Source: Candidatus Latescibacterota bacterium (GTDB lineage Bacteria; Latescibacterota; UBA2968). Taken from it: a DNA stretch of 64,000 nt. The stretch covers positions 2,464,001 to 2,528,000 of the forward strand of contig OZ220741.1 of NCBI GenBank assembly GCA_965116885.1, given 5' to 3'. The position numbers and the translations under genes were made by a program. The notes under the pieces were generated by a model. It worked only from the letters and a program-made list of their open reading frames with translations, ran no database searches and was not told where the DNA came from. Positions 1 through 54,257 of this stretch are shown here, one piece after another; position 1 is the first letter of the stretch, and every line of letters begins with the position of its first letter.

Positions 1-367
1 GGTGCAAGAGCCTTTGATTTTGTTTCACACGGATTCCATATCGCGCAAAATTGTGGATGAGCGATTTGGGGAAGCAGGTGTGTCTCCCGGCGTGGTGATG
101 GAGATGCGAAGTCCGGAGGCGATGCGAAAGCTGGTGGAGGTCGGTGTGGGGATTTCGTTTTTGCCTATGCTGACTGTGCAGGAGTCCCTAAGTGCCGGGG
201 CGTTAAAGGTGGTGGATGTGGAGGGCGTGGCATTTAGCCGCGAGGTCGGTGTGGCGTGGCGGCAAGGACGCTATTTTAGCGCGGCGATTCGGTATCTGAT
301 TGAGGCGATTTTTGGAGCATATCAAGGGCTGGAGATCTGGCACAAGAAGGTGGGGATTGCAAAATGA
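1..367 (+). CDS. LysR-family regulator, C-terminal substrate-binding domain (5' partial)
   Basis: EMRSPEAMRKLVEVGVGISFLP...REVGVAWRQGRYFSAA resembles the LysR effector domain; runs off the window edge. Confidence 0.85.
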   Translation, partial: VQEPLILFHTDSISRKIVDERFGEAGVSPGVVMEMRSPEAMRKLVEVGVGISFLPMLTVQESLSAGALKVVDVEGVAFSREVGVAWRQGRYFSAAIRYLIEAIFGAYQGLEIWHKKVGIAK

Positions 368-372
368 GTACG

Positions 373-1542
373 CTAAAACTTGAATATTTTGCGTTCGGTT
401 TGTTCAAGGGTTTGTTCGATGAGGGGGGCGAGGTCGAGCGTGGATTCGATTTCGCGGACTTTTTCCAAATTGGCGCGCGTTTCGGGGTGTTTGGGGACAA
501 AGACAGAACAACAATCTTCGTAGGGTTCAATGGAGATTTGATATGTGCCAATGCGCCGGGCCTCGTTGATGATTTCTTCTTTGTTGTCACCGGCTAATGG
601 TCGCAAGATAGGCAGCGGGATAACATCTTCGATGACGCGCATGTTCGACAGGGTTTGCGAGGCGACCTGTCCGACGTTTTCGCCTGTGACGAGTGCCTGG
701 GCATTGACTTTTTGGGCTATGGCTTCTGCAATGAGAAGCATGGCGCGGCGGTAGAGAATGACGCGGTAGCTCGCAGGTGCTCGCATCATTATATGGCGTT
801 GAATTTCGACGAATGGCACCAGGTACAGGTCCGACACGTATTGATGCCGGGTGAGGAGTTGCACGAGGTCTTCGGTGTTGCGCTGGGAGTTGCGATTGGT
901 ATAGGGCTGGCTGTGAAAATGCACATAAGTCAATTTGACGCCGCGTTTCATAATTTTGTAAGAAGCTACGGGTGAGTCAATGCCCGAGGAGATGAGGCTT
1001 ACTGCGCGTTCATTGGATCCGACGGGCAAACCCCCTGGTGCCGAAATTTTTTCGGCGTAGATAAATATGCGTTGTGGGGCAATTTCAATAAAGCAGGTGA
1101 GGTCTGGATTGTCCATCAGGACGCGGGCACCCGACAGGGTTTGAATATGCTTGCCCACATCCCGATTGATCTGGTCCGAATTGAGGGGAAAGGTTTTGTC
1201 GCCGCGTCTGGTGACAATTTTGAAGGATTGAAAGTCGGTTTTTTGTGCAAGTGCCCAGGCTGTTTCTCGAATGGCTTCGATATTGCGTTTGGCGACCACT
1301 GCTTCGGAAAAGTTGGCGATGCCAAAGACTGTTGAGAGTCGTTCTCGGATTACATCTATCGGCGATTCTGAGGTGAGTGCGAGCATCATGCGGCCCGATA
1401 GACGTTCGAGCTTTCCGCAGGGTACGTCTTTGAGTGCGCGGTTGATGTTGGTCATCAGACGCCGTTCAAATTTGCCCCGATTTTTGCCTTTGAGGCCAAT
1501 TTCGTGATAGTGTATGAGTATGAAGCGGTCGTTGGTCGTCAT
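373..1542 (-). CDS. thiI: tRNA 4-thiouridine synthase ThiI
   Basis: HYHEIGLKGKNR N-terminus, THUMP domain, PP-loop SSGIDSPVA, SQTLSN, ILRPL, EDCC. Confidence 0.95.
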   Translation of the reverse strand: MTTNDRFILIHYHEIGLKGKNRGKFERRLMTNINRALKDVPCGKLERLSGRMMLALTSESPIDVIRERLSTVFGIANFSEAVVAKRNIEAIRETAWALAQKTDFQSFKIVTRRGDKTFPLNSDQINRDVGKHIQTLSGARVLMDNPDLTCFIEIAPQRIFIYAEKISAPGGLPVGSNERAVSLISSGIDSPVASYKIMKRGVKLTYVHFHSQPYTNRNSQRNTEDLVQLLTRHQYVSDLYLVPFVEIQRHIMMRAPASYRVILYRRAMLLIAEAIAQKVNAQALVTGENVGQVASQTLSNMRVIEDVIPLPILRPLAGDNKEEIINEARRIGTYQISIEPYEDCCSVFVPKHPETRANLEKVREIESTLDLAPLIEQTLEQTERKIFKF

Positions 1543-3122
1543 GAGATGGGTTGGGGATTAAGGGATAAATCGCGCTGGAGTATAACGAGGGTTATATCGT
1601 CGGTGCGCCGCGCGTTGCCAATAAAGGCTTTGATATTGGCGACGAGGTCGGCAATCAGGTCTGTGGGTGTCCGATCTATGGATGCGCGTTCGAGACAACG
1701 GACAAATCGGTCGTCGTCAAAGAAGTTGCGTTTGGCATTTTGGGCTTCGACAACACCGTCGGAGTAGAGCACAAGGCGATCACCGGGTGCGAGTGTTAAA
1801 TGTTCAACGCGATAGGGCGTTTGGGGGCGTACAAGTGCCGGAATGCCAAGGGGATATCCCGCGAGGTCGATAAATTGAGATCGGTTGGAAAGATGGATCG
1901 GTGGACAGTGTCCTGCACTTGCAAGCGTGACTTCGCCGGTGGGTACGTCGAGCACAGCGATGCAGCATGTGATAAATGTAGTCTGGTCAATCTGACCTTC
2001 CAGTGAGTCATTAAGACCGTCGAGAATATCGGCTGGCGCAACGCGATTTTGACATTCATAGCGGAGCATTTCATTGAAACGCACGGCGGTCACGGCTGCT
2101 TCCATGGCTTTGCCAGAGACATCGGCAACGACGATGCCGAGTTTTGTTTTGTCTTCATCCAACCAGCGGTACGTATAGTAATCCCCGCCGACGCTGTTGG
2201 CGGGAATACAGGTTCCGTCGATTGCAAAACCAGGCAGGTCGGGACTGGATTGTGGCAATAGACCCATTTGCATGTCGTGCGCTGTTTGCAATTCGTCGCG
2301 CATTTCCGAAAATTGTTGTTTGTAGCTCTCCCACTGTCGCGCTTCTTCGCAAAGGGTCTGGTTGTAGGCCGATGCAAAAATTCCGAGGGCGAGGGGTTGA
2401 AAGAGGACGAAGACACAGAGTTGGGCTAAGGCATTGTCGGTGATGCTGTCGGTGAGAGCGACTGAGCCTGCAAGAATTCCGAGCGCGGTGAGTATAAGCG
2501 CGCAGTGGCGAAAAAAGCCGTAGCGTTCTACAGCTTTGCGACTTTCGACATAGGCTTCATCGATGTGTACCCCCCGGTCTGCTGCCAGAAGATAGATATA
2601 GAAGCATTTGACAACAAAAATGAGGCCGGGTAAAAATAAGAGGCAAGCTGCCGGAATGACGGCATAATAAATAATATTTTTGTCTTCTAAGAATCTTCCA
2701 ATGTTTTCTGGTGCAGTGGGGATATCCCAGGTCGTTTCCCGAGCGACGACCTGTTTGAATGCATTGAGCAGGAATGCAAAGAAATCACTGTTCACAAAAA
2801 CCAGCGCCACAATGAGGGCGAAGCCGAGAATAAAAAACAGGAAGATAAAAATGTTCATCGAAAAAAAACGGACGAAACGAATGATCTGCCCAAATAGATC
2901 TCGCATATGGGGTTTTGCTCCTTGCTGCGCGCGCAAGATCATGATGGCAAAGCCAGCATATAAGCTGCCCAGGAGCAAAGTGCCCGATACCGCACTCAGG
3001 AGTATTGCCAAGAATGAAGCGAGGAACAAAAGGGGCAGGTGACTTGCCCAGGAAGATATGCTGTCGTTGAGACAGCGAAGGTATTGGAGATTTGCCCGAA
3101 CGGGGATATCGAGAGGAGCCAT
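1539..3122 (-). CDS. Membrane-bound PP2C/SpoIIE (RsbU-like) phosphatase
   Basis: Multi-TM N-terminus, coiled coil, VGGDYY, ADVSGK, YSDGVVEA, DDITLV motifs. Confidence 0.9.
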   Translation of the reverse strand: MAPLDIPVRANLQYLRCLNDSISSWASHLPLLFLASFLAILLSAVSGTLLLGSLYAGFAIMILRAQQGAKPHMRDLFGQIIRFVRFFSMNIFIFLFFILGFALIVALVFVNSDFFAFLLNAFKQVVARETTWDIPTAPENIGRFLEDKNIIYYAVIPAACLLFLPGLIFVVKCFYIYLLAADRGVHIDEAYVESRKAVERYGFFRHCALILTALGILAGSVALTDSITDNALAQLCVFVLFQPLALGIFASAYNQTLCEEARQWESYKQQFSEMRDELQTAHDMQMGLLPQSSPDLPGFAIDGTCIPANSVGGDYYTYRWLDEDKTKLGIVVADVSGKAMEAAVTAVRFNEMLRYECQNRVAPADILDGLNDSLEGQIDQTTFITCCIAVLDVPTGEVTLASAGHCPPIHLSNRSQFIDLAGYPLGIPALVRPQTPYRVEHLTLAPGDRLVLYSDGVVEAQNAKRNFFDDDRFVRCLERASIDRTPTDLIADLVANIKAFIGNARRTDDITLVILQRDLSLNPQPIS

Positions 3123-3127
3123 AGCAA

Positions 3128-4537
3128 TCAGGGTTTTTCTTTGTTGAGTTTGTATTTGCGGTACAGGTGGCGAAATTGGTCGTAGCTGAGTTTGAGTTGT
3201 TTGGCGGCTTCGCGCTGGTTCCAGGAGACTTTATCGAGAATGCGCCGCAATAGACTCAGTTCAAAGGATTGCACTTGTGATTCAAAGCCGTCGTTTAATT
3301 CGGGTGATTGGGGCACCTGTTGAGAAACTTCGGGTGGCAGATCGCCGGATTCAATCTCAGTTCCACGGGCGACACAGGCTGCGCGTTCGGCTGCAAATTT
3401 GAGTTCGCGCACGTTGCCCGGCCAGCGATATGTCATCAGGCGTTCTGTTGCCGCATCGGAAAAATCGCGTTTTTGAAGGCCCGGTACTTCCTCGACGATT
3501 TGCGCGACAAAATAATCGGCTAATGCGGGAATGTCTTCTCGGCGTTCGCGCAATGGGGGCATGTGCAAGACTTCAAAACGCAATCTGTCGTAGAGGTCCT
3601 GGCGGAATCGGCCTTCGGCAATTTCCGTTTCGAGATTGGTATTCGTGGCGGCAATAACGCGCACGTCGATAAAGATGGGTGTCGCGCTGCCCACGCGCTG
3701 GATTTCGCTATATTCTATGGCGCGCAATACGTTTTGTTGAAATTCGGGGGTGGTGTTGCCGATTTCATCGAGAAACAGGGTGCCGCCACTCGCGGCTTCA
3801 AATTTGCCCGTGCGGGCTTCTGTCGCGCCCGTATATGCCCCTTTTTCGTGTCCAAAGAGTTCACTTTCGAGCAATTGGTCGGCAATGGCGGCGCAATTGA
3901 CTTTGACAAAAGGACGGTCTTTGCGGTCACTGCCATAGTGGATGGCAGCGGCGACGAGTTCTTTGCCCGTTCCGGGTTCGCCCGTGATGAGCGCGGGCCG
4001 GGGGATGGGGGCTACGGTTTGCGCTCGCTGGAGAATTTGCTGGAGTTTGGGGCTGGAGCCGATGATTTGATAACGCTTGCCAAATTCGTCTCGGTAGAAT
4101 TGGTTTTCGCGCCCCAGGTCCTGAACTTCGGCTCGCAGTTGGGCGTTTTCTCTGAGTGCTTGATACACGCGGTCGAGTTTTTCAAGGCTGAGTTCGATCT
4201 TGTCTTCGATATAAAAGTCTTTTTCAATAAAGTCTGTTGCGCCCAATCGCAATGCAGCCACGGCAGTATCTATTGTGCCCTGGCCGGTGAGCATAATGAC
4301 GGGCAGGGCGGGGACCGCTTCGAGCATTTGCGGTAAAATTTCGAGGCCGTCGGGTTCATTGGGGCCGTAATCGAGGTCGAGAATGGCCAGACTAATCTGA
4401 TCGGGATACTGTTTGAGATGTGCCAGAGCTTCGCGCCCGGTCGAAAAGGCATGGACAGTGCGCGTGTCGTCTCGCAGGCTTCGAATTAGCATGTCGAGGA
4501 CTTCTATCTGGTCGTCAGCAACGATAATTTCGGTCAT
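3128..4537 (-). CDS. Sigma-54 enhancer-binding response regulator (REC-AAA+-HTH), PspF-like
   Basis: REC (ADD, LDLD, MLTG, DFIEK); [54 protein letters not shown] resembles the PspF C-terminus. Confidence 0.92.
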
Positions 4538-4559
4538 GGGAGCAATATTGAAAAGGGTC

Positions 4560-5822
4560 TTATTGAATAAATTCTTCTGCTATAGGATCGCGTGAGGTGT
4601 CGGGAACGCTGTGTTGCAGACCAATGCTGTCTTGTTGTGTTGAGACTTCAAAATCGACGGGCAGGTCAATGCGGAAAACCGCACCTGCGCCCGGGCGGCT
4701 GATTACGCGCAGTGTGCCGCGGTGTGCCGCTGCAATGCGAGAGCAGATACTCAGCCCATATCCATTGCCCCTTTCCCGCGTTGAAAATCCGGGGTCAAAT
4801 ATACGGGTTTGCAAATTTTCGGGAATGCCGGGACCATTGTCTTCTACTTCAATATATACCGAACTGCGCTCTGTATCAGCGCCGACCTGTACTGTTACCA
4901 CGCCATTGTCTTCAACGGCTTCGATGGCGTTGAGGGTCAGGTTTGTGACGGCTTCAGATAGCATGCCTGCATCCGCTTTTACCTGAGGTACATGAGGTTC
5001 GGCTGCAAATGTGAGCTCTTTTTGCCCTGCTCGTGCAGAGAGTTTGTGGGTCATTTTTTCAATGAGTTGGGGCACATCGACCAGCGCGGGGTTCATGGTG
5101 TCTTGTTTCATAGATCGCAAATAGGCAACCCACTGGTTGTAGATGTGTTCTTGTTCGTGCGCGATGTCTTTAAGATCATCCAGGCCGTGTGTATCTGGCG
5201 GTACATTGCGTATGGCGCGGCGCATTCGGCTGCCGGAGAGGCCCATCAGATTTTTGATGCGGTGGCCGTGCGTGTAGAGGCTTTCATAGACCTGGGCGCG
5301 GCCCAGGTCTATGAGTTCGAGAGAGAGCCGCGCGAGAATACCCGGTGCTCTAACACCAAATTCTTCGGTGATGCTTTCGTATTCGCGTTCCATTTGCGTT
5401 GAACTCATGTGGTGAAAGAGCAATCGAGCGAGATTACCATAGGGCAGCATGTAATCGGGTTCGAGGTGTATGGCGATTTTAAACTCGCCAAGTGCCGATA
5501 AAATTTGCCCATTTTGCATGAGCAAAACGCCCAGGTTGTTGTGCCCGGGCGCGAAGAGTGGATCGGCTTCTAAACCCCGGCGATAAATGGGAATCGCGCG
5601 AGATGCGTTTTCCGGAAAGTCATCGAGCAGGCTACCCAATAAAAAACAGACGCGGTCAATGAGGGCTTGTTCACCACCCCGGTTATCGACAGACAAAATG
5701 TATTCGAGGTGTTCAACCGCTTTTTTGTAGTCGTCTGAACCCGGTGTTGCCCCGCGAGCGTGTTGTAGGGCCGTTTGGAAACGGGATTCTATGTCCGGGG
5801 CTATGTTCAGGGTGTTGGTCAT
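4560..5822 (-). CDS. Soluble TPR-containing sensor histidine kinase
   Basis: TPRs (HNNLGVLLMQNGQ, YGNLARL); H-box HRIKNLM; NLTLNAIEA, EDNGPGIP, IFDPGFST, GNGYGL. Start moved to MTNTLN to avoid overlap with flotillin. Confidence 0.88.
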   Translation of the reverse strand: MTNTLNIAPDIESRFQTALQHARGATPGSDDYKKAVEHLEYILSVDNRGGEQALIDRVCFLLGSLLDDFPENASRAIPIYRRGLEADPLFAPGHNNLGVLLMQNGQILSALGEFKIAIHLEPDYMLPYGNLARLLFHHMSSTQMEREYESITEEFGVRAPGILARLSLELIDLGRAQVYESLYTHGHRIKNLMGLSGSRMRRAIRNVPPDTHGLDDLKDIAHEQEHIYNQWVAYLRSMKQDTMNPALVDVPQLIEKMTHKLSARAGQKELTFAAEPHVPQVKADAGMLSEAVTNLTLNAIEAVEDNGVVTVQVGADTERSSVYIEVEDNGPGIPENLQTRIFDPGFSTRERGNGYGLSICSRIAAAHRGTLRVISRPGAGAVFRIDLPVDFEVSTQQDSIGLQHSVPDTSRDPIAEEFIQ

Positions 5823-5844
5823 AGCAGTACTTGTGCGTTGTCGC

Positions 5845-7365
5845 CTACGCCTCTGCGTCTTCTGTGGTATCGGGTTTGTCATTTTCCCCGGACGTTTGTT
5901 CGCCGTTCATTTTGCCCAAAAATTCGGGTAATTCAAGCCCTGCCAGACGCGCCAGATCGTGCATGGGCGGTATGGCACCCATGAGGCGTTGTCCCAGGTT
6001 GGACATGCCACTGTCGCCATTGCCGCTATCCCAGACCATTACTTTGTCGATGGGCAGGTTGCTAATGGCCTCTGCCTGGATGTTGGCGACTTCGGTGAGG
6101 CGTTCGATGATCAGGAAGGCCGCTGCAGCTTGATCGTTGCTGCCACAGGCTTCAACGAGTTGTCTGTATCCTTCGGCTTTCGCGTTGAGAATGGCCTGAG
6201 TCCCCTCAGCTTCTGCCTGTTTTTGTGCGAGAATGGCTGCGGCTTCACCTTCGGCAATAAGCCGTCGCTGTTCTTTTTCGGCTTCTGCTTGAACGACCTG
6301 GCGCTGTTTTTCGGCTTCTGCCTGAACGACGATTTCTGCCCGCAAACGCGCTTCTTCGCGCAGTGCTCGGGCTTCTTCGGCTGCTTTTTCCGCGGTTTCC
6401 TGGGCGACGCGAATGGCACCGTCGGCACCTTTGGCCGCTTCTTCTGCTTTTCGGCGCGCTTCTTCTTCTGCAACGCGTTGCTGTGCGCGATAGCCCGCTG
6501 TTTTTGCTTCGGCTTCTGTTTCTGACTGTACGGCTTCTGCTTCGAGAGCGGCGACATTTTGGCGTTTGTCTCGCCCTGCCTCGGCTTCGCCAATTTCTGC
6601 TTCTGATTCGAGTGCGGCGACCTGTCGTCGTCTGTTTCGCGCGGCTTCGGCTTCGCCCACTTCGGCTTCTGATTCGGCTGCGGCGACGTCCCGACGGCGG
6701 TCGCGTGCGCGTTCGGCCACGCCGACCTGTCCGTGTCGCTCTTGCTCGGCCACGTCGATAGATGCCTGGTTCACGGCTTCAGCGGCAGCTTTTTGGCCGA
6801 TGGCTTTGATGTAGCCGCTTTCGTCGTCGAGGTCTTTGATGTTGACATTGATAACGGCCAGACCAATTTTTTCCATTTCAGTGGAGACGGCATCATTAAC
6901 TTTGGTCATGAATGCCTGTCGGTCCTGATTGATTTCTTCAATTTTCATGGTTGCAATGACTGCGCGCATCTGGCCGAGGATGATGTCCTGTGCCTGGCTC
7001 TGAATTTGATCGCGGGACAGGCCCAGGAGGCGGATGGCTGCGTTTTGCATGACGCCGGGCTGATTGGAGATGGCTGCTGTGACTGTGGTGGGCACGGATA
7101 CGCGGATGTTTTCCTGTGATAGCGCGTTGTCCAGGTCGATGGGTACGACAAAGGGTTCGAGGTCGAGGTACTCGTAATCCTGCAAAAGGGGCAGGACAAA
7201 TGCTGCGCCGCCGTGTACACATTTTGCGGCTGTGCCACCTCCTGTTTTGCCGTAGATGACGAGAATTTTGTTGGATGGACAGCGCTTGTAACGCGAGATA
7301 AATGTGAGGAACAGCAATAATACAACGGCTGATAGGAGTACGGTGAGAATGAATTCGGTGGGCAT
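5845..7365 (-). CDS. Flotillin / SPFH-domain protein (YqiK/FloT-like)
   Basis: N-terminal TM, RYKRCPSNKILVIYG, SPFH domain, long AE-rich coiled coil with 22-aa repeats. Confidence 0.93.
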   Translation of the reverse strand: MPTEFILTVLLSAVVLLLFLTFISRYKRCPSNKILVIYGKTGGGTAAKCVHGGAAFVLPLLQDYEYLDLEPFVVPIDLDNALSQENIRVSVPTTVTAAISNQPGVMQNAAIRLLGLSRDQIQSQAQDIILGQMRAVIATMKIEEINQDRQAFMTKVNDAVSTEMEKIGLAVINVNIKDLDDESGYIKAIGQKAAAEAVNQASIDVAEQERHGQVGVAERARDRRRDVAAAESEAEVGEAEAARNRRRQVAALESEAEIGEAEAGRDKRQNVAALEAEAVQSETEAEAKTAGYRAQQRVAEEEARRKAEEAAKGADGAIRVAQETAEKAAEEARALREEARLRAEIVVQAEAEKQRQVVQAEAEKEQRRLIAEGEAAAILAQKQAEAEGTQAILNAKAEGYRQLVEACGSNDQAAAAFLIIERLTEVANIQAEAISNLPIDKVMVWDSGNGDSGMSNLGQRLMGAIPPMHDLARLAGLELPEFLGKMNGEQTSGENDKPDTTEDAEA

Positions 7366-7386
7366 AGGACCTCCCTTGGTTCAGGA

Positions 7387-7986
7387 TTAAATGGGTTCGA
7401 CTTCAACAGTGGTTATGTCGAGTGTTCGCAATACGCGCACCGGCGTTTTGTTCTGGATGGGCAGCCCGTCTTTGCTGCGCGCAGAGATGTAGTTGACAGC
7501 CCCGCTTTCCATTACGCGGATTTGACCAGCGCCATTTTCGGGGATGTCGATATAGACTTCGCCTTCATTGCCGATGCAGGATGATAGGTTTCGGTTATGC
7601 GATTCGGAGAGTTGTTGCACTTTGTAGAAGAAGTACGCAACCAGGACCATCCCCGCGCCGCCCCATACGAGGCCGCGTAGAACCGACTCTTCGATTGAGA
7701 GGCCCAGGTCGAGGTAGAGTGCGCCTGCCCATCCAAAGAGCATGCCAAAGGCGATCACAGAGCGCAGTGAGAGCAGTTGAAAGGTTGCGACACCGTGATC
7801 ATAAGGACTATTATCGACATCTGGTCCTGCATCGTTGGCATTGAAGTCGTCGGCAAGGCCATCTGCGGAATCGCCCAGGCCGATGAGTGTTGTGATAAAT
7901 TGCCAGAGAAACAAAAGGGTGAAGAAGACAGCGCAGCCATAGAATGCCTGATTGAGAGGCGCGAGTTCTGACCACCATGCCTGCAT
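7387..7986 (-). CDS. NfeD-like membrane protein (YqiJ/YuaF-like), flotillin partner
   Basis: TM helices, LLSLRSVIAF, C-terminal OB fold (IGNEGEVYIDIP...GQIRV); GGAGG RBS before MQAWW. Confidence 0.88.
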   Translation of the reverse strand: MQAWWSELAPLNQAFYGCAVFFTLLFLWQFITTLIGLGDSADGLADDFNANDAGPDVDNSPYDHGVATFQLLSLRSVIAFGMLFGWAGALYLDLGLSIEESVLRGLVWGGAGMVLVAYFFYKVQQLSESHNRNLSSCIGNEGEVYIDIPENGAGQIRVMESGAVNYISARSKDGLPIQNKTPVRVLRTLDITTVEVEPI

Positions 7987-8121
7987 AATTAACCTCCAGA
8001 AATCGATTGCGCGTTTTATCAACTACTTTGGGCAGAGAAGTAGGAAACTGCGACGCGTGAACCTGTTATTCCTAAATTTGTCCATGAGAGAGGCGAAAAG
8101 CAAGGGTTATTTCTTATCCGG

Positions 8122-8712
8122 TCATCCGGGTTGTAAACCGAGTTTGCGAAATTCGCTTTTGAGTTGGCGACGGGCGCGGCACAGCCATGTTTTGACGGTT
8201 CCAAGTGGAACGCGAAGCGCCTGTGTGATTTCTTCGTAAGACCAGTCCATGACGTAGCGCAACCACATGGCTTTGCGATAGCGTTCGGGTAAGTTTTGAA
8301 TGCTTTTGTGGACCAATTGTATGCGTTCGCGTTTTTCGACTATTTGGTCTGGTAGCGCGCCGGGTATGAGGTCGCGGATGACGTTGCGAACGACTTCGGG
8401 GTCTTCGGTTTGATAGACCCAGTTTTGCCGAACTTGTTGCGAGCGCAGGTGCGAGCGATAGACGTTGAGGGCAATTTGCGTGAGCCAGGTCGAAAATGCT
8501 GCCTGGCCTTTGAATGTGTGAAGCGAGCGATAGGCGCGGAAAAATGTGTCTTGCATCAGGTCGTCAATGGTATCGCGGTCCGAAATGCGCTGTGCGAGGG
8601 TGCCGTAGATCTGGTTCTGGTATTTGTGGTAGAGTTTTTCAAAGGCTCGGCTGTCGCCCGAGAGGGATGCGCGAATCAGATTTTGATCCTGTGTTTTCAC
8701 TTTTTTCTCCAT
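8122..8712 (-). CDS. ECF sigma-70 factor (SigW/RpoE-like)
   Basis: GDSRAFEKLY, DLMQDTFFRAY, AFSTWLTQIALN, SYEEI..LGTVKTWLCRAR. Confidence 0.93.
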   Translation of the reverse strand: MEKKVKTQDQNLIRASLSGDSRAFEKLYHKYQNQIYGTLAQRISDRDTIDDLMQDTFFRAYRSLHTFKGQAAFSTWLTQIALNVYRSHLRSQQVRQNWVYQTEDPEVVRNVIRDLIPGALPDQIVEKRERIQLVHKSIQNLPERYRKAMWLRYVMDWSYEEITQALRVPLGTVKTWLCRARRQLKSEFRKLGLQPG

Positions 8713-8770
8713 TCGTTAAGATAATTCGTTTATTACTATTCTCTTGTTTGTAACAAGACGGATTTTTCCG

Positions 8771-8941
8771 TCAGTCTCTTTTGATCAAGCGATAACCGAT
8801 CATAATACATATAACGGCGATGGCGAGTTTGAGCAGGAGAAAGAGTAGCCCAAATAGAGAGCCGATGAGCGGGAAGAGAACCTGGATGGCGATAATGCCA
8901 CCGATGATGATGAGTACGATGCCGATGAGTTTTGCCAACAT
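8771..8941 (-). CDS. 56-aa two-TM small membrane protein (absent from ORF track)
   Basis: Hand translation MLAKLIGIVLIIIGGIIAIQVLFPLIGSLFGLLFLLLKLAIAVICIMIGYRLIKRD*; AAAGGA RBS; fills the operon gap. Confidence 0.8.
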   Translation of the reverse strand: MLAKLIGIVLIIIGGIIAIQVLFPLIGSLFGLLFLLLKLAIAVICIMIGYRLIKRD

Positions 8942-8972
8942 GAGGTGTCCTTTTTATTTGTGAGGTTGTCCG

Positions 8973-9332
8973 TCATTCCGAGATGGTTTGCGGAGGTGAA
9001 AGTGACTTAACGGGCGAGCGGCTTTCGAGACGCTCGAGTTTGTCGTCGTTGGTGATGACGATATCTTGAAGGTCGATGAGGCGTTTTTCAAGTTCTTTCA
9101 CGCGTTTTGATAGTTTTTCAGACAGGTTGTTGTTTTTTGTCGATTTGTTTCTTTTTTTATTTTCTGACTCAAATGCGAATACGAGGGCGACAATGGTAAT
9201 GATAGCCATGGCAACCCAGGCCGCCGCCAGGATGAGGCCACCTCCAAATGTTGGGTTTTCAATATAGGCAATTGTACCGCCTGCAAGAATAATTAGACTG
9301 ATACCAACCGTGAGTGAGAGAAAGATGCGCAT
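8973..9332 (-). CDS. PspB-like membrane protein with cytoplasmic coiled coil (paralogue 3)
   Basis: Two TM segments plus RVKELEKRLIDLQDIVITNDDKL; GGGAGG RBS. Confidence 0.7.
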   Translation of the reverse strand: MRIFLSLTVGISLIILAGGTIAYIENPTFGGGLILAAAWVAMAIITIVALVFAFESENKKRNKSTKNNNLSEKLSKRVKELEKRLIDLQDIVITNDDKLERLESRSPVKSLSPPQTISE

Positions 9333-9355
9333 GGTGCCCTCCCTGTTAGTTTAAG

Positions 9356-9589
9356 TTAGCGAGAAATAGGCGATCGCTCGAATTTTTCGTCAATGGTGAT
9401 GAGGATGTCCTGAATGTCCGTGAGTCTGCGGTCGAGTTCGTCCATTCTCTCATTCAAGCGTTTTTCCGCATCGCTGGGGATAGATCCTTTTGTGCGGCGG
9501 TCAATGTATTTGTGTACTGCTGATGCAATGGCTCCTACAATGATGATCAGCAATATGCCACCCATAGTGACACCAATAACATTAGTCAT
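9356..9589 (-). CDS. PspB-like single-TM coiled-coil protein (paralogue 2)
   Basis: TM plus RMDELDRRLTDIQDILITIDEK; AGGAGG RBS. Confidence 0.72.
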   Translation of the reverse strand: MTNVIGVTMGGILLIIIVGAIASAVHKYIDRRTKGSIPSDAEKRLNERMDELDRRLTDIQDILITIDEKFERSPISR

Positions 9590-9600
9590 GTTACCCCTCC

Positions 9601-9801
9601 TTATTTTCTGCTGAGTTTTTCGTCAATGGTGATCATGACGTCCTGAATGTCTGTGAGCCTGCGGTCGAGTTCGTCCATTCGTTCATTCAAGCGTTCTTCT
9701 GCATCGCTGGGGATTGAGCCTTTGGTGCGGCGATCGACGTATTTGTGTACCGCTGATGCGAGAATGATTATCGCTACCATGATTCCAATTTCAAACATCA
9801 T
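9601..9801 (-). CDS. PspB-like single-TM coiled-coil protein (paralogue 1)
   Basis: TM plus RMDELDRRLTDIQDVMITIDEK; near-duplicate of 9356..9589; GGGAGG RBS. Confidence 0.72.
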   Translation of the reverse strand: MMFEIGIMVAIIILASAVHKYVDRRTKGSIPSDAEERLNERMDELDRRLTDIQDVMITIDEKLSRK

Positions 9802-9822
9802 TTGTTTGCCCTCCCATACACA

Positions 9823-10494
9823 TTAGAGTTCATCCACGGGTCTCGCGCGGTGTTTTTCATCCCAGTGTTCGATTTCCGGAAAATGGTAAACGACGAGTCC
9901 CGAATCTGAGATTCGCATTTCCGCATGACCACTTATGGTTAATTCTCGCAGGATTTCTTCGGTTTTTTCAACTGTTATTCTGGTGTCCATAGCAGTTTCT
10001 GTCACGGTGAGGCTGCCCCCTTTATCCCGGGCGAGACGGAGTATGCGGTGCTGGTTTTTGGCATGTGCTTTTTTGTCTCCCGATCTTTTGACCTTGCGAC
10101 CTGCCCACCATATAATCTGAGAGATGATGATTAGCACGAGGCCGCCACTGAGTTCTTCGTGCATGAATGGGTTTGTGCCATCGACCCAGGGAGGATATTG
10201 TATCACTACCATGAGTACGAGCATGAGGCCGCTAAATCCCATAAGTGCAGCCATTCCTATTAAACCATAAGCGAAGAGATAACGCATGGCACAACTCCCA
10301 TCGGTGGCGAGGTCAGAGAGGCGGTCGGGCACGCGCTTGAATGAATTGGTTGCACTTTGGAAATCACTGCTCGCAGTGTGAACGCGCGCCTCCCAGTTTC
10401 CCCTCCATTTCTTTTTTATTTTTCGCTCCGCATCGTTGACCGCGCGGTCAATTTTGCTGGCGATTTCATCGGCGAGTTTTTCCAGGTCACGCAT
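9823..10494 (-). CDS. Membrane protein: N-terminal coiled coil, 2 TM, C-terminal winged-helix-like domain
   Basis: Overlaps pspA stop; C-terminal ILRLARDKGGSLTVTE..TEEILREL..GHAEMRISDSGLVVYHFP. Confidence 0.75.
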   Translation of the reverse strand: MRDLEKLADEIASKIDRAVNDAERKIKKKWRGNWEARVHTASSDFQSATNSFKRVPDRLSDLATDGSCAMRYLFAYGLIGMAALMGFSGLMLVLMVVIQYPPWVDGTNPFMHEELSGGLVLIIISQIIWWAGRKVKRSGDKKAHAKNQHRILRLARDKGGSLTVTETAMDTRITVEKTEEILRELTISGHAEMRISDSGLVVYHFPEIEHWDEKHRARPVDEL

Positions 10495-11164
10495 CTTTTT
10501 GTCCCATTTTCTTTTTTAGTGCACTGAGTTCGTCTTCTACTGTGCTTTTGCGCTCGAGTTTGGAGAATTCTTCTTCCAGAGAGGGGTCAGCACTCGCCAT
10601 TTCTTGATGGGCTTCGGCTTCGGCTTCTTCGGTTTCGATGCGCTGGCGGAATCGTTCAAAGCTCGAAAATGCGTCTTCACCCACTCCCGAGAGGCCCCTG
10701 GCGATTTGCTTGCGGGCTTCGGCTGCACGACGTCGGGCAATTAGAGTGCCCTGGCGGGTGCGGGCTTCGTCGAGTTTGGCTTTGAGTTGGGTGAGTTGTT
10801 GTTTGAGTTGGGACGAGGTTTTACGGCTTTCTTCGAGGGCGACTTCGAGGTCGTGTGTGGCTTCCTGATTTGCAGCTTTGCGTTCGAGGGCGCGGCGGGC
10901 AAGGTCGTCTTCGCCGGCTTCAACGGCTAATTCGGCTTTTTTTTGCCAGGCTTCTATTTGATCTTGTTTTTCGAGATATTGTCTTTCCAGGCGTTTTTCG
11001 TTGGCTACAGCCGTGCCAACCGAAGCAGTGGCTTTATTGACGGCTTCTTCCATTTCCAGAATCATCTGGCGGATCATTTTTTCCGGGTCTTCTGCGCGGG
11101 TAATCAGGTCGTTGACGTTGGCTTTGACGATGTCGGCCATTCTGTAAAAAATTCCGCGTGCCAT
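10487..11164 (-). CDS. pspA: PspA/IM30 (bacterial ESCRT-III) family protein
   Basis: GIFYRMADIVKANVNDLITRAEDPEKMIRQMILEM, GEDDLARRALERK, SLEEEFSKLE, VEDELSALKKKM. Confidence 0.96.
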   Translation of the reverse strand: MARGIFYRMADIVKANVNDLITRAEDPEKMIRQMILEMEEAVNKATASVGTAVANEKRLERQYLEKQDQIEAWQKKAELAVEAGEDDLARRALERKAANQEATHDLEVALEESRKTSSQLKQQLTQLKAKLDEARTRQGTLIARRRAAEARKQIARGLSGVGEDAFSSFERFRQRIETEEAEAEAHQEMASADPSLEEEFSKLERKSTVEDELSALKKKMGQKDA

Positions 11165-11232
11165 GATCTGCTCCTTTCACAGGGTGATACATTTATGGGA
11201 TTCTGATGTTTTTTGTTGTCGCACTCTTTTTA

Positions 11233-11248
11233 TGCAAAGTCTATGCCA
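11233..11248 (-). promoter_or_regulatory. Sigma-54 -24/-12 promoter of pspA operon
   Basis: Minus strand TGGCATAGACTTTGCA = GG-N10-GC, ~70 nt upstream of pspA ATG. Confidence 0.88.
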
Positions 11249-11322
11249 GGAGTGCGATGAGGTGTTAAGTGTTGTTTTTCATACACATAGATATTTTTTG
11301 AAATAGGATAGGTCGATAAAGT

Positions 11323-11359
11323 TGGTGAAAATTGCCATGTGTTCTGGCGAAAGAGACCA
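11323..11359. promoter_or_regulatory. Two PspF-type upstream activator boxes
   Basis: TGGTGAAAATTGCCA (11323-37) and TGGCGAAAGAGACCA (11345-59): TGG-N9-CCA, 22 bp apart, about -100 to -136. Confidence 0.65.
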
Positions 11360-11492
11360 AATTTTCCATTTTTGATCGGATATTTTTAGAGGGTCACATC
11401 TTGTCTTTTTTTTCTAAAAGGTCTATTATCTATCGGTTTGTCGCAAGTTGGTCTCAAATACCATCACTTTCACTCTATACACTGAATTTTTT

Positions 11493-12944
11493 ATGTTTCG
11501 ATATATCCGACTGTTTTTGTTTGCCTGGTTATTTTTATCTTGTGCGGCACATGCGCCTGCTTTAACAGAGACTTATGTGGTGCAAAGAGGGGATTCTCTG
11601 TGGGAAATTGCCGATCAATTTTCCATGAGTGTGACTGAACTTAAGCGGAGCAATGGGTTGAGATCGCATCACATTTATCCGGGACAAAGACTGCTCATTC
11701 GCTCACAAAGGCTTCCCACGCGCTCTTCCAGTGGGGTAGAATACGTGGTGAGAAGGGGAGATTCGCTTTCTAAAATCGCCGCGCGATATTCTATGAGTGT
11801 GACCGAACTGAAGCGGCTTAATGGGTTGAGGTCGAATAATATTTATCCCGGACAAAGGCTTCGCACCCGCTCTGCAGTGCAACCGTCTCGCTTCCGCCCA
11901 TCTTCTGGCTACGTAGAAATGGACTATGTGGTGAGAAGGGGGGATACGCTTTCTAAAATTGCCGCACAATATTCTATGGGCCTGACCGAACTGAAGCGGA
12001 GCAATGGTATCCGATCAGATCGCATTCATGTGGGCCAGAGGTTAAAGATACGGACTCGGTTAACAAAGATCGCGATGGATAATGGGCCGTATTATTTTTC
12101 TCGTCCCAAAGCTGCTGTGCAACGCAGTCGGAGATATCGAGAAGTGCCCCCCAAAAAGCCGATTGAAGATTATAGGAGTGCCCGAAATTTGATGGGTGTG
12201 TTCAATGCAAGTATTAATTCTGATATGCGTCGAGATGGCAGATCATTGAATGGCTGGCGCATTGTGCTCGACCCGGGGCACGGTGGACGCGATCCGGGTG
12301 CTATTGTTTCCAATTTAGATGGCAATAATCGTTCGGTTTATGTGGTCGAAGACGAATTTGTTTACGATATCGCGTTGCGTTTGTACCAAAAACTGAGGCT
12401 TGCAGGTGCCGAGGTGGAGATGACGGTGATTAGTCCAAATCATCTCATTCGAGAAAATAATCCGCCTTCGAGGACGTTTGTACACGAACAAAACGAAGTC
12501 TATAACGATGCAAGCGCCAACAGAAGAAATAGTTTTTCAGTGCGTCCGGGGCTTGATAATATTGTACAAAGAGTAAAAATAGCCAACCGTTTCTTTGCAA
12601 GGCGCGGGAAGACTCTGTTTATATCGCTGCATGCAGACAACACACCCAATCGTCCAAAGGGTCCGCTGGTTATTTATTGGAGCAGGCGCGGGAAGATCGA
12701 TTCGCGGTCCCGGGCATTTGCGCGGATTATGGAAAGGGCACTCGATCTGCCAGATGTGCCCGCTCAAATTGGGGGGCGCAATCTGGCGGTGTTGCGAGGC
12801 AATCTGGCGCAGGCAGAAATTTTGGTGGAGATACGCAATGTACATCATAAGGGCGAAGCATGGGCATTGCGGTCCCACAAGATGCGCGACTCCGATGCGG
12901 ATCGCATTTTTCGCGGGATCTTAAATTACGCGAAGAGGTATTAG
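11493..12944 (+). CDS. LysM (x3) N-acetylmuramoyl-L-alanine amidase (Amidase_3), possible lipoprotein
   Basis: Three YVV(Q/R)RGD LysM repeats; IVLDPGHGGRDPGA, FISLHAD, ILVEI; FLSC lipobox-like. Confidence 0.9.
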   Translation: MFRYIRLFLFAWLFLSCAAHAPALTETYVVQRGDSLWEIADQFSMSVTELKRSNGLRSHHIYPGQRLLIRSQRLPTRSSSGVEYVVRRGDSLSKIAARYSMSVTELKRLNGLRSNNIYPGQRLRTRSAVQPSRFRPSSGYVEMDYVVRRGDTLSKIAAQYSMGLTELKRSNGIRSDRIHVGQRLKIRTRLTKIAMDNGPYYFSRPKAAVQRSRRYREVPPKKPIEDYRSARNLMGVFNASINSDMRRDGRSLNGWRIVLDPGHGGRDPGAIVSNLDGNNRSVYVVEDEFVYDIALRLYQKLRLAGAEVEMTVISPNHLIRENNPPSRTFVHEQNEVYNDASANRRNSFSVRPGLDNIVQRVKIANRFFARRGKTLFISLHADNTPNRPKGPLVIYWSRRGKIDSRSRAFARIMERALDLPDVPAQIGGRNLAVLRGNLAQAEILVEIRNVHHKGEAWALRSHKMRDSDADRIFRGILNYAKRY

Positions 12945-20616: not shown

Positions 20617-21371
20617 CGAGACAATGCGGTGATTGGGAACTGGAGCGTTTTCGACTGGGTGAATTGCCAGAAGAAGAAATGGAAGCTATTCAAAGGGCGC
20701 TGGATGCGGATCCAGATTTGAGGACGCGTTTGGAGGCATTGGAAGGGTCAGATCGGGAAATTCACATGTCCTATCCGGCTGATTGGGTGGCGCAGCAGGT
20801 GGCGCGGCGTTTGCAGAGACGAGAGGTGCCGAGTATATCGCGGTTCGATCCGCGTTTTGCATTGGTCGCTGTGATTTTGCTGGCCGCTGTTTTTGCGATC
20901 TATTTGCCGGGGCCTGAAGTGCCGCCGACCTGGGATCGAAAAGGTGTGGATGGCATTCGGTTAAAAGGCGTAAAGCCGGATTTGTTGTTGTATCGAAAAA
21001 GGGCGTCTGAGGTTGAACAATTGGCGGATAGCAGTGTGGCTTATGCGGGTGATTTAATTCAGATTTTTTATCGCGCAGCGGGCAAGCCTTTTGGGGTGAT
21101 TGTGTCTGTGGATGGGCGCGGTACTGTGACGCGGCATTTGCCCGCTTCGGGAACAAGTGCCGTGCGGTTGATACAGGGCGATCCCGTGCCGCTGGATTAT
21201 TCTTATGAACTGGATGATGCCCCGAAGTGGGAACGGTTTTATTTTTTGACAGCAGATGCGTCTTTTGATGTGCGCGATGTGACACAAGCGGCAAAGGAAG
21301 GGCTCGATTCATTGCGGGTGGGAAGAGAATTTGAGCAGTTTGCCATTACGCTTTACAAAGGGGGCAGGTGA
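20613..21371 (+). CDS. Single-TM anti-sigma factor with extracytoplasmic DUF4384-like domain
   Basis: ATGA overlap with sigma; LERFRLGELP anti-sigma-type N-terminus, TM, RLKG, GDLIQIFY, VSVDGRG, YELDDAP. Confidence 0.8.
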   Translation: MTRQCGDWELERFRLGELPEEEMEAIQRALDADPDLRTRLEALEGSDREIHMSYPADWVAQQVARRLQRREVPSISRFDPRFALVAVILLAAVFAIYLPGPEVPPTWDRKGVDGIRLKGVKPDLLLYRKRASEVEQLADSSVAYAGDLIQIFYRAAGKPFGVIVSVDGRGTVTRHLPASGTSAVRLIQGDPVPLDYSYELDDAPKWERFYFLTADASFDVRDVTQAAKEGLDSLRVGREFEQFAITLYKGGR

Positions 21372-22933: not shown

Positions 22934-22945
22934 TTGGAGGGGAAT

Positions 22946-39029: not shown

Positions 39030-39032
39030 GAC

Positions 39033-39437: not shown

Positions 39438-39452
39438 GTTCAGGAGGTTTTC

Positions 39453-39860: not shown

Positions 39861-39863
39861 GCT

Positions 39864-44925: not shown

Positions 44926-44950
44926 AAAGCGACAACTGAAAGGAGATTTT

Positions 44951-54246: not shown

Positions 54247-54257
54247 TGGTGGTCTCC

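Follow-up and report, generated by a model that had tools for sequence, protein, structure and literature searches.

A receiver-bearing PspF-clade sigma-54 activator linked to a TPR histidine kinase and pspA in a Latescibacterota bacterium

Activator, kinase and pspA at the locus

The minus strand of positions 3128-4537 of the window (the whole 64,000-nt stretch of Candidatus Latescibacterota DNA analysed here) translates without stops into a protein of 469 residues (P0001), which translation, Pfam, tree and NCBIfam place as a sigma-54 activator of the PspF clade with the order REC-AAA+-HTH. The receiver, GAYTGA loop and HTH that had been read in this frame in the original prediction are thus present, as judged from translation and Pfam. 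The receiver domain covers residues 4-111 (4205-4528; Response_reg, E 5.5e-16) and carries D8, D9, D54, T84 and K106, a phospho-acceptor set invariant in 13/13 members of the activator family, which are 51-100% identical. It is followed by the AAA+ core for sigma-54 interaction (residues 158-321; 3575-4066; Sigma54_activat, E 1e-64), by an AAA_lid_14 domain (residues 330-412, E 1.4e-23) and, at the C-terminus, by an HTH (residues 418-467; 3137-3286) that bears the recognition-helix signature of the PspF clade according to BLASTP and alignment. Within the core, GEPGTGKE and the DE of LFLDEIG (Walker A/B) align with PspF in BLASTP, and the sigma-54 contact loop reads GAYTGA (residues 233-238; 3824-3841), as it does in 3 of 13 aligned family members (the query, P0013 and P0035), the other 10 having GAFTGA. 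GAYTGA is the natural, functional form in HrpS, according to excerpts of PMC3105312.

The receiver fold and the HTH helices are confident in the AlphaFold2 model of the activator, where the linker appears as one long helix running from the receiver to the AAA+ domain (residues 118-155; 4073-4186), modelled at a low pLDDT of 39-50. A PDB fold search with this model returned inactive-state NtrC1 (1ny5) and NtrC4 (3dzd) among the best full-length matches, that is, the generic fold of receiver-bearing bEBPs, by which subfamilies are not separable. The likeness to bEBPs of the NtrC1/NtrC4/DctD type (Aquifex NtrC1, PDB 1ny5 and 4l4u) thus comprises the REC-linker-AAA+-HTH architecture, a place among the best full-length matches in both sequence and structure, and the long helix between receiver and AAA+, which in NtrC1 holds the ATPase in an inactive dimer. 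Unlike those proteins, the activator has its AAA+ and HTH domains in the PspF clade rather than among generic REC-bEBPs, and its partner kinase is a soluble TPR protein instead of a membrane or PAS sensor.

The gene of that kinase lies directly upstream of the activator gene across a gap of 22 nt (4560-5822, minus strand). It encodes a soluble histidine kinase of 420 residues, counted from Met21 of the longest open frame (4560-5882), with TPR repeats at its N-terminus, an H-box His187 and a catalytic domain (Pfam TPR_17, HATPase_c). All 14 sequences of the kinase family keep H187, K190, N191, the N-box and the G-boxes unchanged, the nearest relatives measure 417-420 residues and cover 95% of the frame, and the best NCBIfam models are AtoS and ZraS. 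Pfam and the family alignment revealed neither a TM segment nor a small-molecule-binding domain, leaving the TPR repeats as the sole input module. The kinase family comprises at least 120 clusters at 90% identity, and the lists of activator and kinase relatives have 21 longest-contig sizes that are identical (14 for contigs of 20 kb or less), which favours linkage of the two genes. This kinase is the probable partner of the activator.

Also on the minus strand, pspA (10487-11164) encodes 225 residues with a full-length PspA_IM30 domain (Pfam E 1.4e-46; 159.3 bits, cutoff 33.9). Over 220 residues the product is 38% identical to E. coli PspA, and it scores 180.8 bits against TIGR02977, below the cutoff of 242.95. 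The gene has a sigma-54-type promoter: TGGCAT-N5-TTGCA at 11233-11248 (minus strand), 69 nt upstream of the ATG, which departs from the pattern at one position. Over the whole window such matches are not above chance (33 against 36.9 expected); among the six with one mismatch, this one alone is intergenic ahead of a same-strand gene, and no other sigma-54-type promoter lies between genes in the first 12 kb. No rpoN gene was found in the 64,000 nt. The imperfect palindrome at 11332-11350, inside the enhancer proposed at 11323-11359, is a candidate UAS; its centre falls some 118 nt ahead of the expected pspA start site, and its pattern, allowing up to one mismatch, occurs 4 times in the window against 1.09 expected. 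The palindrome is unlike the upstream repeat of E. coli psp, and no convincing inverted repeat, direct repeat or shared k-mer emerged when the window, a related locus (L003, see below) and the sequence upstream of E. coli psp were compared. With the E. coli sequence one 7-mer is shared, where about 6 are expected by our own estimate.

Behind pspA, the interval 8771-10494 (minus strand) holds the small or membrane frames o223 (9823-10494), o66 (9601-9801) and o77 (9356-9589), and further on o119 (8973-9332) and o56 (8771-8941). The paralogues o66 and o77 each combine a single TM segment with a coiled coil. A weak PspB match is seen in o119 (Pfam E 0.045, below cutoff), and o77 aligns with E. 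coli PspB over 15 residues (BLASTP E 0.022), a likeness that we take as a hint only. Directly after o56, a weak minus-strand hairpin (8757-8772; -10.3 kcal/mol, z -1.95) may be where transcription from pspA stops; the terminator scan picks it up on the plus strand only, and over positions 1-12000 that scan gave 15 sites against 16.5 expected from shuffled sequence, none of them on the minus strand in a gap. The activator gene is situated 6.6 kb and ten frames downstream of the pspA promoter, all on one strand, within a run from an NfeD-like gene (8022) to ThiI (373) where neighbouring genes are separated by 5-22 nt or slightly overlap; an ECF sigma gene, an NfeD-flotillin pair and a 170-nt gap with the hairpin intervene. 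Given this distance and the ECF sigma gene and NfeD-flotillin pair in between, other targets of the activator are therefore conceivable.

Clade membership and the PspA-docking residues

BLASTP aligns residues 157-464 of the activator with the whole of PspF from E. coli K-12 (RefSeq) at 42% identity. The original prediction held the protein to be PspF-like and not NtrC/AtoC-like, and the bEBP phylogeny agrees: in a maximum likelihood tree computed with IQ-TREE from 70 rows of the AAA+ core and lid, the query and E. coli PspF share one branch of 39 rows (support 100/100, length 0.39), outside which fall E. coli NtrC, AtoC, ZraR, GlrR, NorR, FhlA, PrpR and TyrR together with 23 generic rows. A quick tree of 71 rows gives the PspF-clade branch an SH-aLRT support of 100, and a clade joining the query family to NtrC/AtoC/ZraR/GlrR is rejected (delta lnL 160, p-AU 2.8e-6). 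The 39 clade rows comprise the query and 13 members of its family, 9 further representatives with a receiver, L002 and L003, 2 of 25 generic REC-bEBPs drawn at random, 11 proteins of about 320 residues that have no receiver, and E. coli PspF, the only experimentally studied PspF in the tree, which sits on a long branch (1.3). The relatives of the activator carry the labels Latescibacteria, Gemmatimonadota, Kofleriaceae or plain 'bacterium'.

Profile searches point the same way. With the receiver removed (residues 157-469), the best NCBIfam model is that of PspF, TIGR02974, at 344.2 bits, followed by NifA (328.7), NtrC (286.1) and AtoC (280.8), the protein remaining below both curated PspF cutoffs (344.2 against 443.55 for TIGR02974 and 283.3 against 529 for NF008622), for which E. 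coli PspF scores 541.0 and 678.6. The HTH signature, an NQ..AA stretch and then YDQFRH, can be read in 36 clade rows, that of E. coli PspF among them, and is poor or absent in the other three (rep_P0142, gen_P0153 and L003); in the alignment of 71 bEBPs it is absent from 9 other E. coli proteins and from the 23 generic non-clade rows. There are 26 receiver-bearing clade members besides the query, and the activator family amounts to at least 120 clusters at 90% identity: the REC-AAA+-HTH architecture is no one-off, but a natural form that is common within the PspF clade. The ML tree requires two changes of receiver gain or loss, and AU tests reject neither a single receiver-less clade (p-AU 0.41) nor a PspF placed outside the other 38 members (p-AU 0.50); the direction implied by a response 'rewired' from sequestration to phosphorelay, as it had been put, is thus unsupported.

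PspA docks on E. coli PspF through the 'YLW' residues Y51, L52 and W56, of which Tyr51 is described as the primary docking residue in the sections of PMC3791423 available to us. The counterpart of the W56 loop in the activator (residues 200-210; 3908-3940), located by BLASTP against E. coli PspF and by the alignment of 71 bEBPs, has Tyr201 for Y51, Gly202 for L52 and Lys206 for W56. In the BLASTP alignment W56 falls opposite Lys206 and the two HTH ends coincide, so that the E. coli strings given in the original prediction were right, and so was the replacement of Trp by Lys. That replacement is no sign of a loss of control by PspA, since among 39 sampled clade members Trp is found in E. coli PspF only, being absent in 38/38 others and in all 11 receiver-less ones. 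Therefore, Trp is not a feature of the clade and its absence does not track receiver gain; in this 39-member sample, the YLW patch defines enterobacterial PspF instead of the clade.

These residues bear on two accounts of how PspA might relate to the activator. In the first, which is that of the original prediction, sequestration by PspA has been lost, control is by phosphorelay only, and the activator amplifies its own transcription. The replacement of Trp56 and Leu52 and the intact receiver and kinase are in keeping with it, but Trp is equally missing from the receiver-less members, which have no alternative cis regulator, the primary docking residue Tyr51 is kept as Tyr201, and the complex prediction presented below points to a PspA still in the loop; we consider this account, taken with its self-amplification, quite improbable. 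In the second, direct inhibition of the activator by PspA would persist, using some surface outside the YLW patch, with the receiver as a second layer. The retained Tyr201 would suit it, as would the 11 receiver-less members that lack Trp and yet presumably need a trans regulator, a hint that PspA docking outside enteric bacteria may not need this residue; against it, in receiver-bearing bEBPs such as NtrC1 and DctD the receiver usually supplies control, and we give direct inhibition little credence.

Linkage in other lineages

Eighty further bEBP loci were compared, L002 and L003 plus 78 non-clade loci. Kinase, activator and pspA stand together in 3/3 clade loci examined (the window, L002 and L003), a count that rests on these three loci, and this grouping is found in 0/78 generic bEBP loci. 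PspA occurs within 10 kb only in L002 and L003 of the 80, and nearby in none of the 78. The same two are the only loci to score better with the clade HMM (+70.8 bits for L002, +73.9 for L003), the training set of which included both of them; the main bEBP of every other locus has -34 or lower, the least negative row, at -9, corresponding to a second, weaker frame. In L002 and L003 a full-length homologue of the TPR kinase is again directly upstream of the activator. Thus, the three genes are linked in three distant lineages. A search of genome contigs with the family alignment and two generic bEBP peptide patterns yielded at least 601 stretches, the best reaching 46% identity among the matches listed, none of which was a close relative, and tblastn of PspA against plasmids retrieved enterobacterial psp operons only, which are uninformative on the receiver-bearing form.

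Gene order is less constant than gene content. In L003 the activator gene and pspA are transcribed towards each other, and in L002 the activator gene precedes pspA, so its co-transcription with pspA is not conserved. This weighs against the positive feedback by read-through that had been envisaged for the window, where the single strand shared by all genes from pspA to the activator and the failure to find a strong minus-strand terminator would permit it, but where the 6.6 kb, ten frames, hairpin-bearing 170-nt gap and ECF sigma gene separating promoter and activator already speak against it. A GG-N10-GC match is present about 82 nt upstream of PspA1 in L003, and no sigma-54 match was seen near pspA in L002.

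The same comparison bears on whether pspA is the target at all. The two-component system could regulate its own NfeD-flotillin-kinase-activator operon or a distant target, its proximity to pspA reflecting only the clustering of envelope-stress genes. The tight packing of the activator in the NfeD-like to ThiI run would be expected in that case, and the intervening ECF sigma factor could serve pspA or flotillin. In Bacillus subtilis, the flotillin operon and a pspA paralogue are under the control of one ECF sigma factor. But the gaps 8023-8121 and 8713-8972 contain no sigma-54 match with up to two mismatches, and within the first 12 kb pspA alone has a sigma-54-type promoter in an intergenic region; furthermore, L002 and L003 have PspA but neither flotillin nor NfeD, and PspA is near none of the 78 non-clade loci. 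A target other than pspA hence seems unlikely to us.

Taken against E. coli PspF, the activator is of the same AAA+ clade, has the HTH signature and the same best NCBIfam model, and its gene is likewise linked to a pspA having a sigma-54-type promoter. It differs in the 156 residues of receiver and linker, which PspF, a protein regulated in trans, lacks altogether, in keeping one of the three YLW residues, in scoring below the curated PspF cutoffs, and in the position of its gene, which is next to a histidine kinase gene and 6.6 kb from pspA instead of divergent from it.

Proposed circuit and possible PspA feedback

Domains, clade membership, conserved phospho-acceptor and H-box residues, three-lineage linkage and the sigma-54-type promoter of pspA are shown by the analysis, and we infer from the whole the phosphotransfer, the enhancer site, the target promoter and the sign with which the receiver acts on the AAA+ domain (repressing or stimulating). 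With a probability of roughly 0.65, the product of 3128-4537 is a PspF-clade response regulator of a TPR-kinase two-component system that drives pspA via its sigma-54 promoter. The kinase would autophosphorylate on His187 and probably pass the phosphate to Asp54 of the receiver; phosphorylation would free the AAA+ domain from an inactive state held by receiver and linker; the activator hexamer would then bind the candidate enhancer upstream of pspA, and its GAYTGA loop would promote the opening of the promoter at 11233-11248, which would drive pspA and the small membrane proteins behind it.

Where PspA itself might enter this circuit is suggested by complex prediction. The TPR region of the kinase (residues 1-175; 5298-5822, minus strand), the predicted PspA dock, gave with full-length PspA a score of 0.61 (runs 0.65, 0.55 and 0.61), the best of three controls reaching 0.14. 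The pass mark separates solved complexes (116 of 157 reach it) from mismatched pairs (2 of 215), counts that apply only roughly here since custom alignments were used (14 rows for the kinase, 4 for PspA). The contacts of the runs agree to at least 96%, with a partner pLDDT of at least 77, and we know of no experimental structure of a TPR-PspA complex on which the model could have drawn. On the PspA side, the modelled interface consists of the helical hairpin (residues 8-10, 41-62 and 105-123) and falls inside the region equivalent to E. coli PspA(1-144), a fragment that contacts PspF according to the portions of PMC6003685 at hand. In the kinase, conservation is higher at the interface than over the remaining TPR region (0.71 against 0.57, permutation p 0.013), a weak test given that conserved TPR residues are partly structural; in PspA it is not (0.45 at the interface against 0.50 elsewhere, p 0.86, from only 4 sequences). 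Coiled coils and TPR grooves are, moreover, both prone to plausible-looking docking. This one prediction thus supports, and does not show, a binding of PspA to the TPR domain.

It is tempting to speculate, on these grounds, that the feedback by PspA has moved to the kinase and has not been lost, as the original prediction would have it. With PspA bound to the TPR domain rather than the activator, the kinase would stay inactive or act as a phosphatase until PspA is recruited to the stressed membrane, and the negative-feedback logic of Psp would survive one step upstream of its E. coli site. A prediction well above its controls, an interface in the PspA hairpin within the region that touches PspF in E. 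coli, TPR repeats as the only input module of the kinase and the conservation of the kinase interface all favour such a relocation, but it remains a prediction, with a PspA interface no better conserved than its surroundings and with the structural share of TPR conservation and the ease of such docking to be discounted; we regard it as a tentative proposal, with odds somewhat short of even.

Two-component control of a PspA-family effector has a precedent in the LiaFSR-LiaH system, which governs a PspA homologue of Bacillus subtilis (PMC9239133 and PMC11237479, as excerpted). The two systems differ in that LiaR is a REC-HTH protein acting on sigma-70-type promoters while the regulator here is a sigma-54 AAA+ activator, and in that LiaS is a membrane kinase checked by LiaF whereas the present kinase is soluble and has TPR repeats. 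NtrC-like activators beside psp genes can also carry cis regulatory domains of other kinds, as in the gammaproteobacterial PspF variants with N-terminal ACT and PAS domains described in the accessible part of Ravi et al. 2024 (PMC11237479); those, unlike the activator, have ligand-binding domains, no receiver and no described kinase. We found no description of the arrangement of receiver-bearing activator, TPR kinase and pspA in the literature covered, which included PMC11237479, PMC9239133 and PMC3041696: the word 'receiver' has 0 occurrences in the text of PMC3041696 as retrieved, and 'rec+ntrc' has 0 in the one supplement text of PMC11237479 that was searched.

What is understood of Psp regulation comes almost wholly from enteric bacteria, and the locus provides a concrete alternative circuit made of a receiver-bearing PspF-clade activator, a dedicated soluble TPR kinase and pspA, which suggests that the phage-shock response outside enteric bacteria is run by a two-component system. 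A still more general and rather doubtful reading is that the non-enteric PspF clade is mostly two-component, with PspA reporting membrane state to a TPR kinase, its hairpin docked on the TPR groove and released under membrane stress, and that E. coli PspF is the special case. If PspA does bind the kinase, the locus would show how a membrane-stress effector feeds back on a phosphorelay and would offer a route into how Psp signalling works outside Proteobacteria.

The receiver-bearing activator and its relation to PspF

Re-translation of the minus-strand ORF at 3128-4537 returned an open frame of 469 aa at matching coordinates, with all the features that the original prediction had read in it. 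In Pfam, residues 4-111 match a receiver, 158-321 a sigma-54 interaction AAA+ domain and 330-412 the AAA+ lid, and the sigma-54 contact loop reads GAYTGA, described as a natural variant in HrpS (PMC3105312). In BLASTP the activator is 42% identical to E. coli K-12 PspF (sequence from the RefSeq record) and covers all of it, PspF W56 corresponding to Lys206 and the HTH ends of both proteins being aligned. The AlphaFold2 model (13 family sequences; mean pLDDT 76.3, pTM 0.52) shows a confident receiver and AAA+ module, a single long helix of low confidence at 118-155 and, at the C-terminus, a DNA-binding domain made of helices (418-467).

The best NCBIfam model for the whole activator is PspF (TIGR02974, 341.9 bits), level with NtrC (340.5), whose model also scores the receiver. 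Once the receiver is removed PspF stands clearly ahead (344.2 bits, with NifA at 328.7, NorR at 309.6, NtrC at 286.1, AtoC at 280.8 and ZraR at 274.4), this score lying below the curated TIGR02974 cutoff of 443.55 (E. coli PspF, 541.0). Our tree was limited to the AAA+ core and lid (query residues 157-400) because the receiver or the HTH could otherwise drive the result. It included the query and 13 members of its family (51-95% identical), 9 more receiver-bearing representatives from a search of 1.84 billion proteins, the activators of two further loci (L002 and L003, see below), 11 proteins from a receiver-less family (~320 aa) reached via the protein entry P0260, several of them named 'psp operon transcriptional activator' by JGI, 10 sigma-54 activators (bEBPs) of E. 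coli K-12 and 25 generic REC-bEBPs drawn at random; RtcR was omitted from the careful tree because of its long branch (3.8). In the careful IQ-TREE analysis, the bootstrap convergence of which was incomplete (correlation 0.986), one branch of length 0.39 and 100/100 support unites E. coli PspF with the query family and with L002 and L003, together with all 9 representatives, all 11 short proteins and two of the 25 generic rows, to the exclusion of every other row; this group is called the clade below. The same grouping was recovered in a quick tree of all 71 rows, and forcing the query family together with E. coli NtrC, AtoC, ZraR and GlrR cost 160 log-likelihood units and was rejected (p-AU 2.8e-6). 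Judged from the alignment, the DNA-binding domain, which was excluded from the tree input, agrees with the AAA+ tree on the clade: of its 39 rows, 36, E. coli PspF among them, show a legible recognition-helix signature, which is poor or missing in the other three (rep_P0142, gen_P0153 and L003). Outside the clade the signature is absent, both from the 9 remaining E. coli bEBPs and from the 23 generic rows. Therefore, the activator groups with PspF and not with NtrC/AtoC, as originally proposed; a PspF-like descent is supported by these comparisons, the protein not being a PspF equivalog by the NCBI cutoff.

PspF variants with ACT and PAS domains have been reported by Ravi et al. 2024, in whose main text transcription factors fall outside the detailed analysis and in whose supplement the PspF contexts, in the part available, are all receiver-less (PMC11237479). 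Popp et al. 2022 refer to PspF as described only in Enterobacteriaceae (PMC9239133), and the word 'receiver' never occurs in the accessible text of Huvet et al. 2011 (PMC3041696). Full-text literature searches on PspF with a receiver, on PspF homologues and on PspA with TPR and histidine kinase did not retrieve the arrangement. The JGI automatic annotation gives the label 'PspF' to some receiver-bearing members, so such sequences are already in databases; as far as could be seen, these forms have not been discussed in print.

A TPR histidine kinase linked to the activator and to pspA

A histidine kinase gene lies directly upstream of the activator gene, with a gap of 22 nt, its product combining TPR repeats with a HATPase_c domain and having no TM segment. 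The longest kinase ORF is 4560-5882 (-); because the closest relatives (417-420 aa, covering 95% of this ORF) start at the second Met, it probably opens 20 codons too early and the true start would be Met21 (nt 5822), which abolishes an apparent 38-nt overlap with the flotillin gene. Across 14 aligned kinases, which share 28-84% identity with the query kinase, the H-box residues His187, Lys190 and Asn191, as well as the N-box and the G-boxes, are invariant, and the majority of the relatives are ~540 aa long, with extra TPR repeats. The best NCBIfam models are AtoS and ZraS, kinases of NtrC-family regulators.

A profile scan of genome contigs with generic bEBP motifs listed 80 loci at 36-46% identity, which we used as a control set. 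Among these listed loci, an HMM of the clade outscores a non-clade HMM on the activator of the best two only, L002 from a deltaproteobacterial MAG (+70.8 bits) and L003 from 'Candidatus Zipacnadia' (+73.9 bits); at all remaining loci the main activator scores -34 or lower. L002 and L003 belonged to the training set of the clade HMM, and the tree places both in the clade independently. A full-length homologue of the TPR kinase is encoded immediately upstream of the activator in both, and they are the only ones of the 80 listed with PspA within 10 kb. Kinase, activator and PspA occur together in 3/3 clade loci, the window included, PspA being near 0/78 listed non-clade loci. Gene order is unlike among the three: L002 has kinase, activator, PspA, a 138-aa ORF and an ECF sigma factor on one strand, and L003 has kinase and activator convergent with two tandem pspA genes. 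The L003 activator ORF (9950-12439, +) runs on to 829 aa with a garbled HTH region and, since pieces resembling the clade HTH appear in other frames, is likely frameshifted, by MAG assembly errors or decay. In addition, 21 longest-contig sizes are identical between the match lists of activator and kinase, 14 of them contigs of <=20 kb, which is hard to explain unless both genes share those contigs. The proposed phosphorelay control of the activator is well supported by anatomy and synteny.

The pspA gene series and its promoter

From pspA through the activator every gene lies on the minus strand. The series is headed by pspA (10487-11164), whose stop is overlapped by 8 nt by an ORF of 223 aa (o223, 9823-10494) whose product has a helical N-terminal part, two TM segments and, at the C-terminus, a small domain; it matched no family in Pfam or NCBIfam and might serve PspA as a membrane anchor or sensor. 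Three consecutive small proteins, o66 (9601-9801), o77 (9356-9589) and o119 (8973-9332), each carry a single TM segment at the N-terminus and resemble one another in their coiled-coil tails, the first two being close paralogues and o119 giving a weak match to Pfam PspB under the cutoff (E 0.045). Tandem PspB copies behind pspA are recorded for Erythrobacter in the supplement of PMC11237479. A nearly all-hydrophobic protein of 56 aa with two predicted TM segments (o56, 8771-8941) and the 6-bp hairpin directly after it (8757-8772; -10.3 kcal/mol, z -1.95) may close the pspA unit, with o56 as its final gene.

An ECF sigma factor gene (8122-8712) stands between pspA and the kinase-activator pair, and the ECF sigma factor of L002 (12740-13351, +), two genes after pspA, is 31% identical to it, which suggests a second, sigma-70-family layer of control on this envelope-stress island. 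The genes of an NfeD-like membrane protein (7387-8022; weak NfeD match, E 0.013), of a 506-aa flotillin (Band_7; 5845-7365) directly upstream of the kinase and of the kinase itself are separated by 21-22 nt, and the first two probably form one operon with the two-component genes. On the other side of the activator, also on the minus strand, a membrane-anchored PP2C/SpoIIE phosphatase gene (1539-3122) begins 5 nt past the activator stop codon and overlaps by 4 nt ThiI (373-1542), the last of the series. The NfeD-like protein, the flotillin and the phosphatase are absent from L002 and L003.

Divergent from pspA, across a common regulatory region of 283 nt, lies a gene for three LysM domains and an N-acetylmuramoyl-L-alanine amidase (11448-12944, +); a cell-wall hydrolase thus adjoins the membrane-stress operon. 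The 64-kb window also holds five sulfatase genes (33324-34982, 44675-46195, 50595-51968, 52816-54261 and 54258-55679), a TonB/ExbB set (38409-40511), TPR proteins and an AcrB-type pump; this gene content is typical of a polysaccharide-degrading environmental bacterium. An adjacent pair encoding a caspase-domain (Peptidase_C14) protein (21368-22933, +) and an Omp85/DUF4252 protein (22934-24625, +) is unrelated to the activator finding.

The 283-nt region contains a sigma-54-type promoter, TGGCAT-N5-TTGCA (11233-11248, -), 69 nt upstream of the pspA start codon. As matches to the sigma-54 pattern are not enriched across the window (33 observed vs 36.9 expected), the weight of this site rests on where it lies: of six matches with a single mismatch, no other is placed ahead of a gene. 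In L003 a GG-N10-GC match precedes the first pspA by ~82 nt, and L002 has no sigma-54 match near pspA; no rpoN gene is present in the 64-kb window. An imperfect palindrome (11332-11350), inside the segment proposed earlier as enhancer (11323-11359), lies ~118 nt upstream of the expected start site, a normal enhancer distance, and is a candidate only. It had also been suggested that positive feedback would arise if the activator were transcribed from the promoter it activates. The pspA promoter and the activator are 6.6 kb and ten ORFs apart, with the hairpin after o56 and then the separate ECF sigma gene between them; a terminator scan of positions 1-12000 gave nothing decisive. Activator and pspA are oriented differently to each other in each of the three loci, so autoregulation by read-through would be at best local, and the suggestion finds no support in this arrangement.

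PspA docking and a possible input to the kinase

In E. coli, PspA docks at the YLW patch of PspF (Y51, L52, W56), of which Y51 is described as the primary docking site (PMC3791423). The query has Tyr201, Gly202 and Lys206 at these positions, and the replacement of Trp by Lys had been taken as a sign of changed PspA control. The observation itself stands; within the 71-row alignment, however, the docking Trp occurs in E. coli PspF only, in 0/27 receiver-bearing and 0/11 receiver-less other clade members, and the Tyr-Leu pair is likewise unconserved. Since receiver-less members, without a cis regulator, also lack it, the Trp appears in this sample as an enterobacterial detail rather than a feature of the clade, and its loss as no marker of a changed mechanism. 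Therefore, the main plank of the proposed rewiring from PspA sequestration to phosphorelay falls. Its direction finds no support either: receiver state requires 2 changes on the ML tree, the AU test rejects neither one single clade of receiver-less proteins (p-AU 0.41) nor a placement of E. coli PspF outside the 38 remaining members, which is 1.49 log-likelihood units better (p-AU 0.50), and these trees are compatible with gain as well as with loss of the receiver.

The kinase is soluble and the TPR domain is its only input module, so it must get its signal from another protein, for which PspA is the obvious candidate. Complex prediction with kinase residues 1-175 and full-length PspA scored 0.61 (runs 0.65, 0.55 and 0.61), the best of three controls reaching 0.14; the pass mark, attained by 116/157 solved complexes and 2/215 mismatched pairs, is only roughly calibrated here, custom alignments having been used as input. 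The runs share at least 96% of contacts, with a partner pLDDT of at least 77, and the model supports, rather than shows, binding of PspA to the kinase TPR domain. The predicted interface involves kinase residues 81-90, 106-122 and 150-155, the most conserved TPR stretch, and PspA hairpin residues 8-10, 41-62 and 105-123. Conservation is higher at the interface than in the remaining region for the kinase (0.71 vs 0.57, p 0.013) and no higher for PspA (0.45 vs 0.50, p 0.86, four sequences only). We would give roughly one chance in three to the proposal, drawn from this model, that PspA acts on the kinase via its TPR domain. If it were true, the negative feedback of the Psp response would be retained, but exerted on the kinase.
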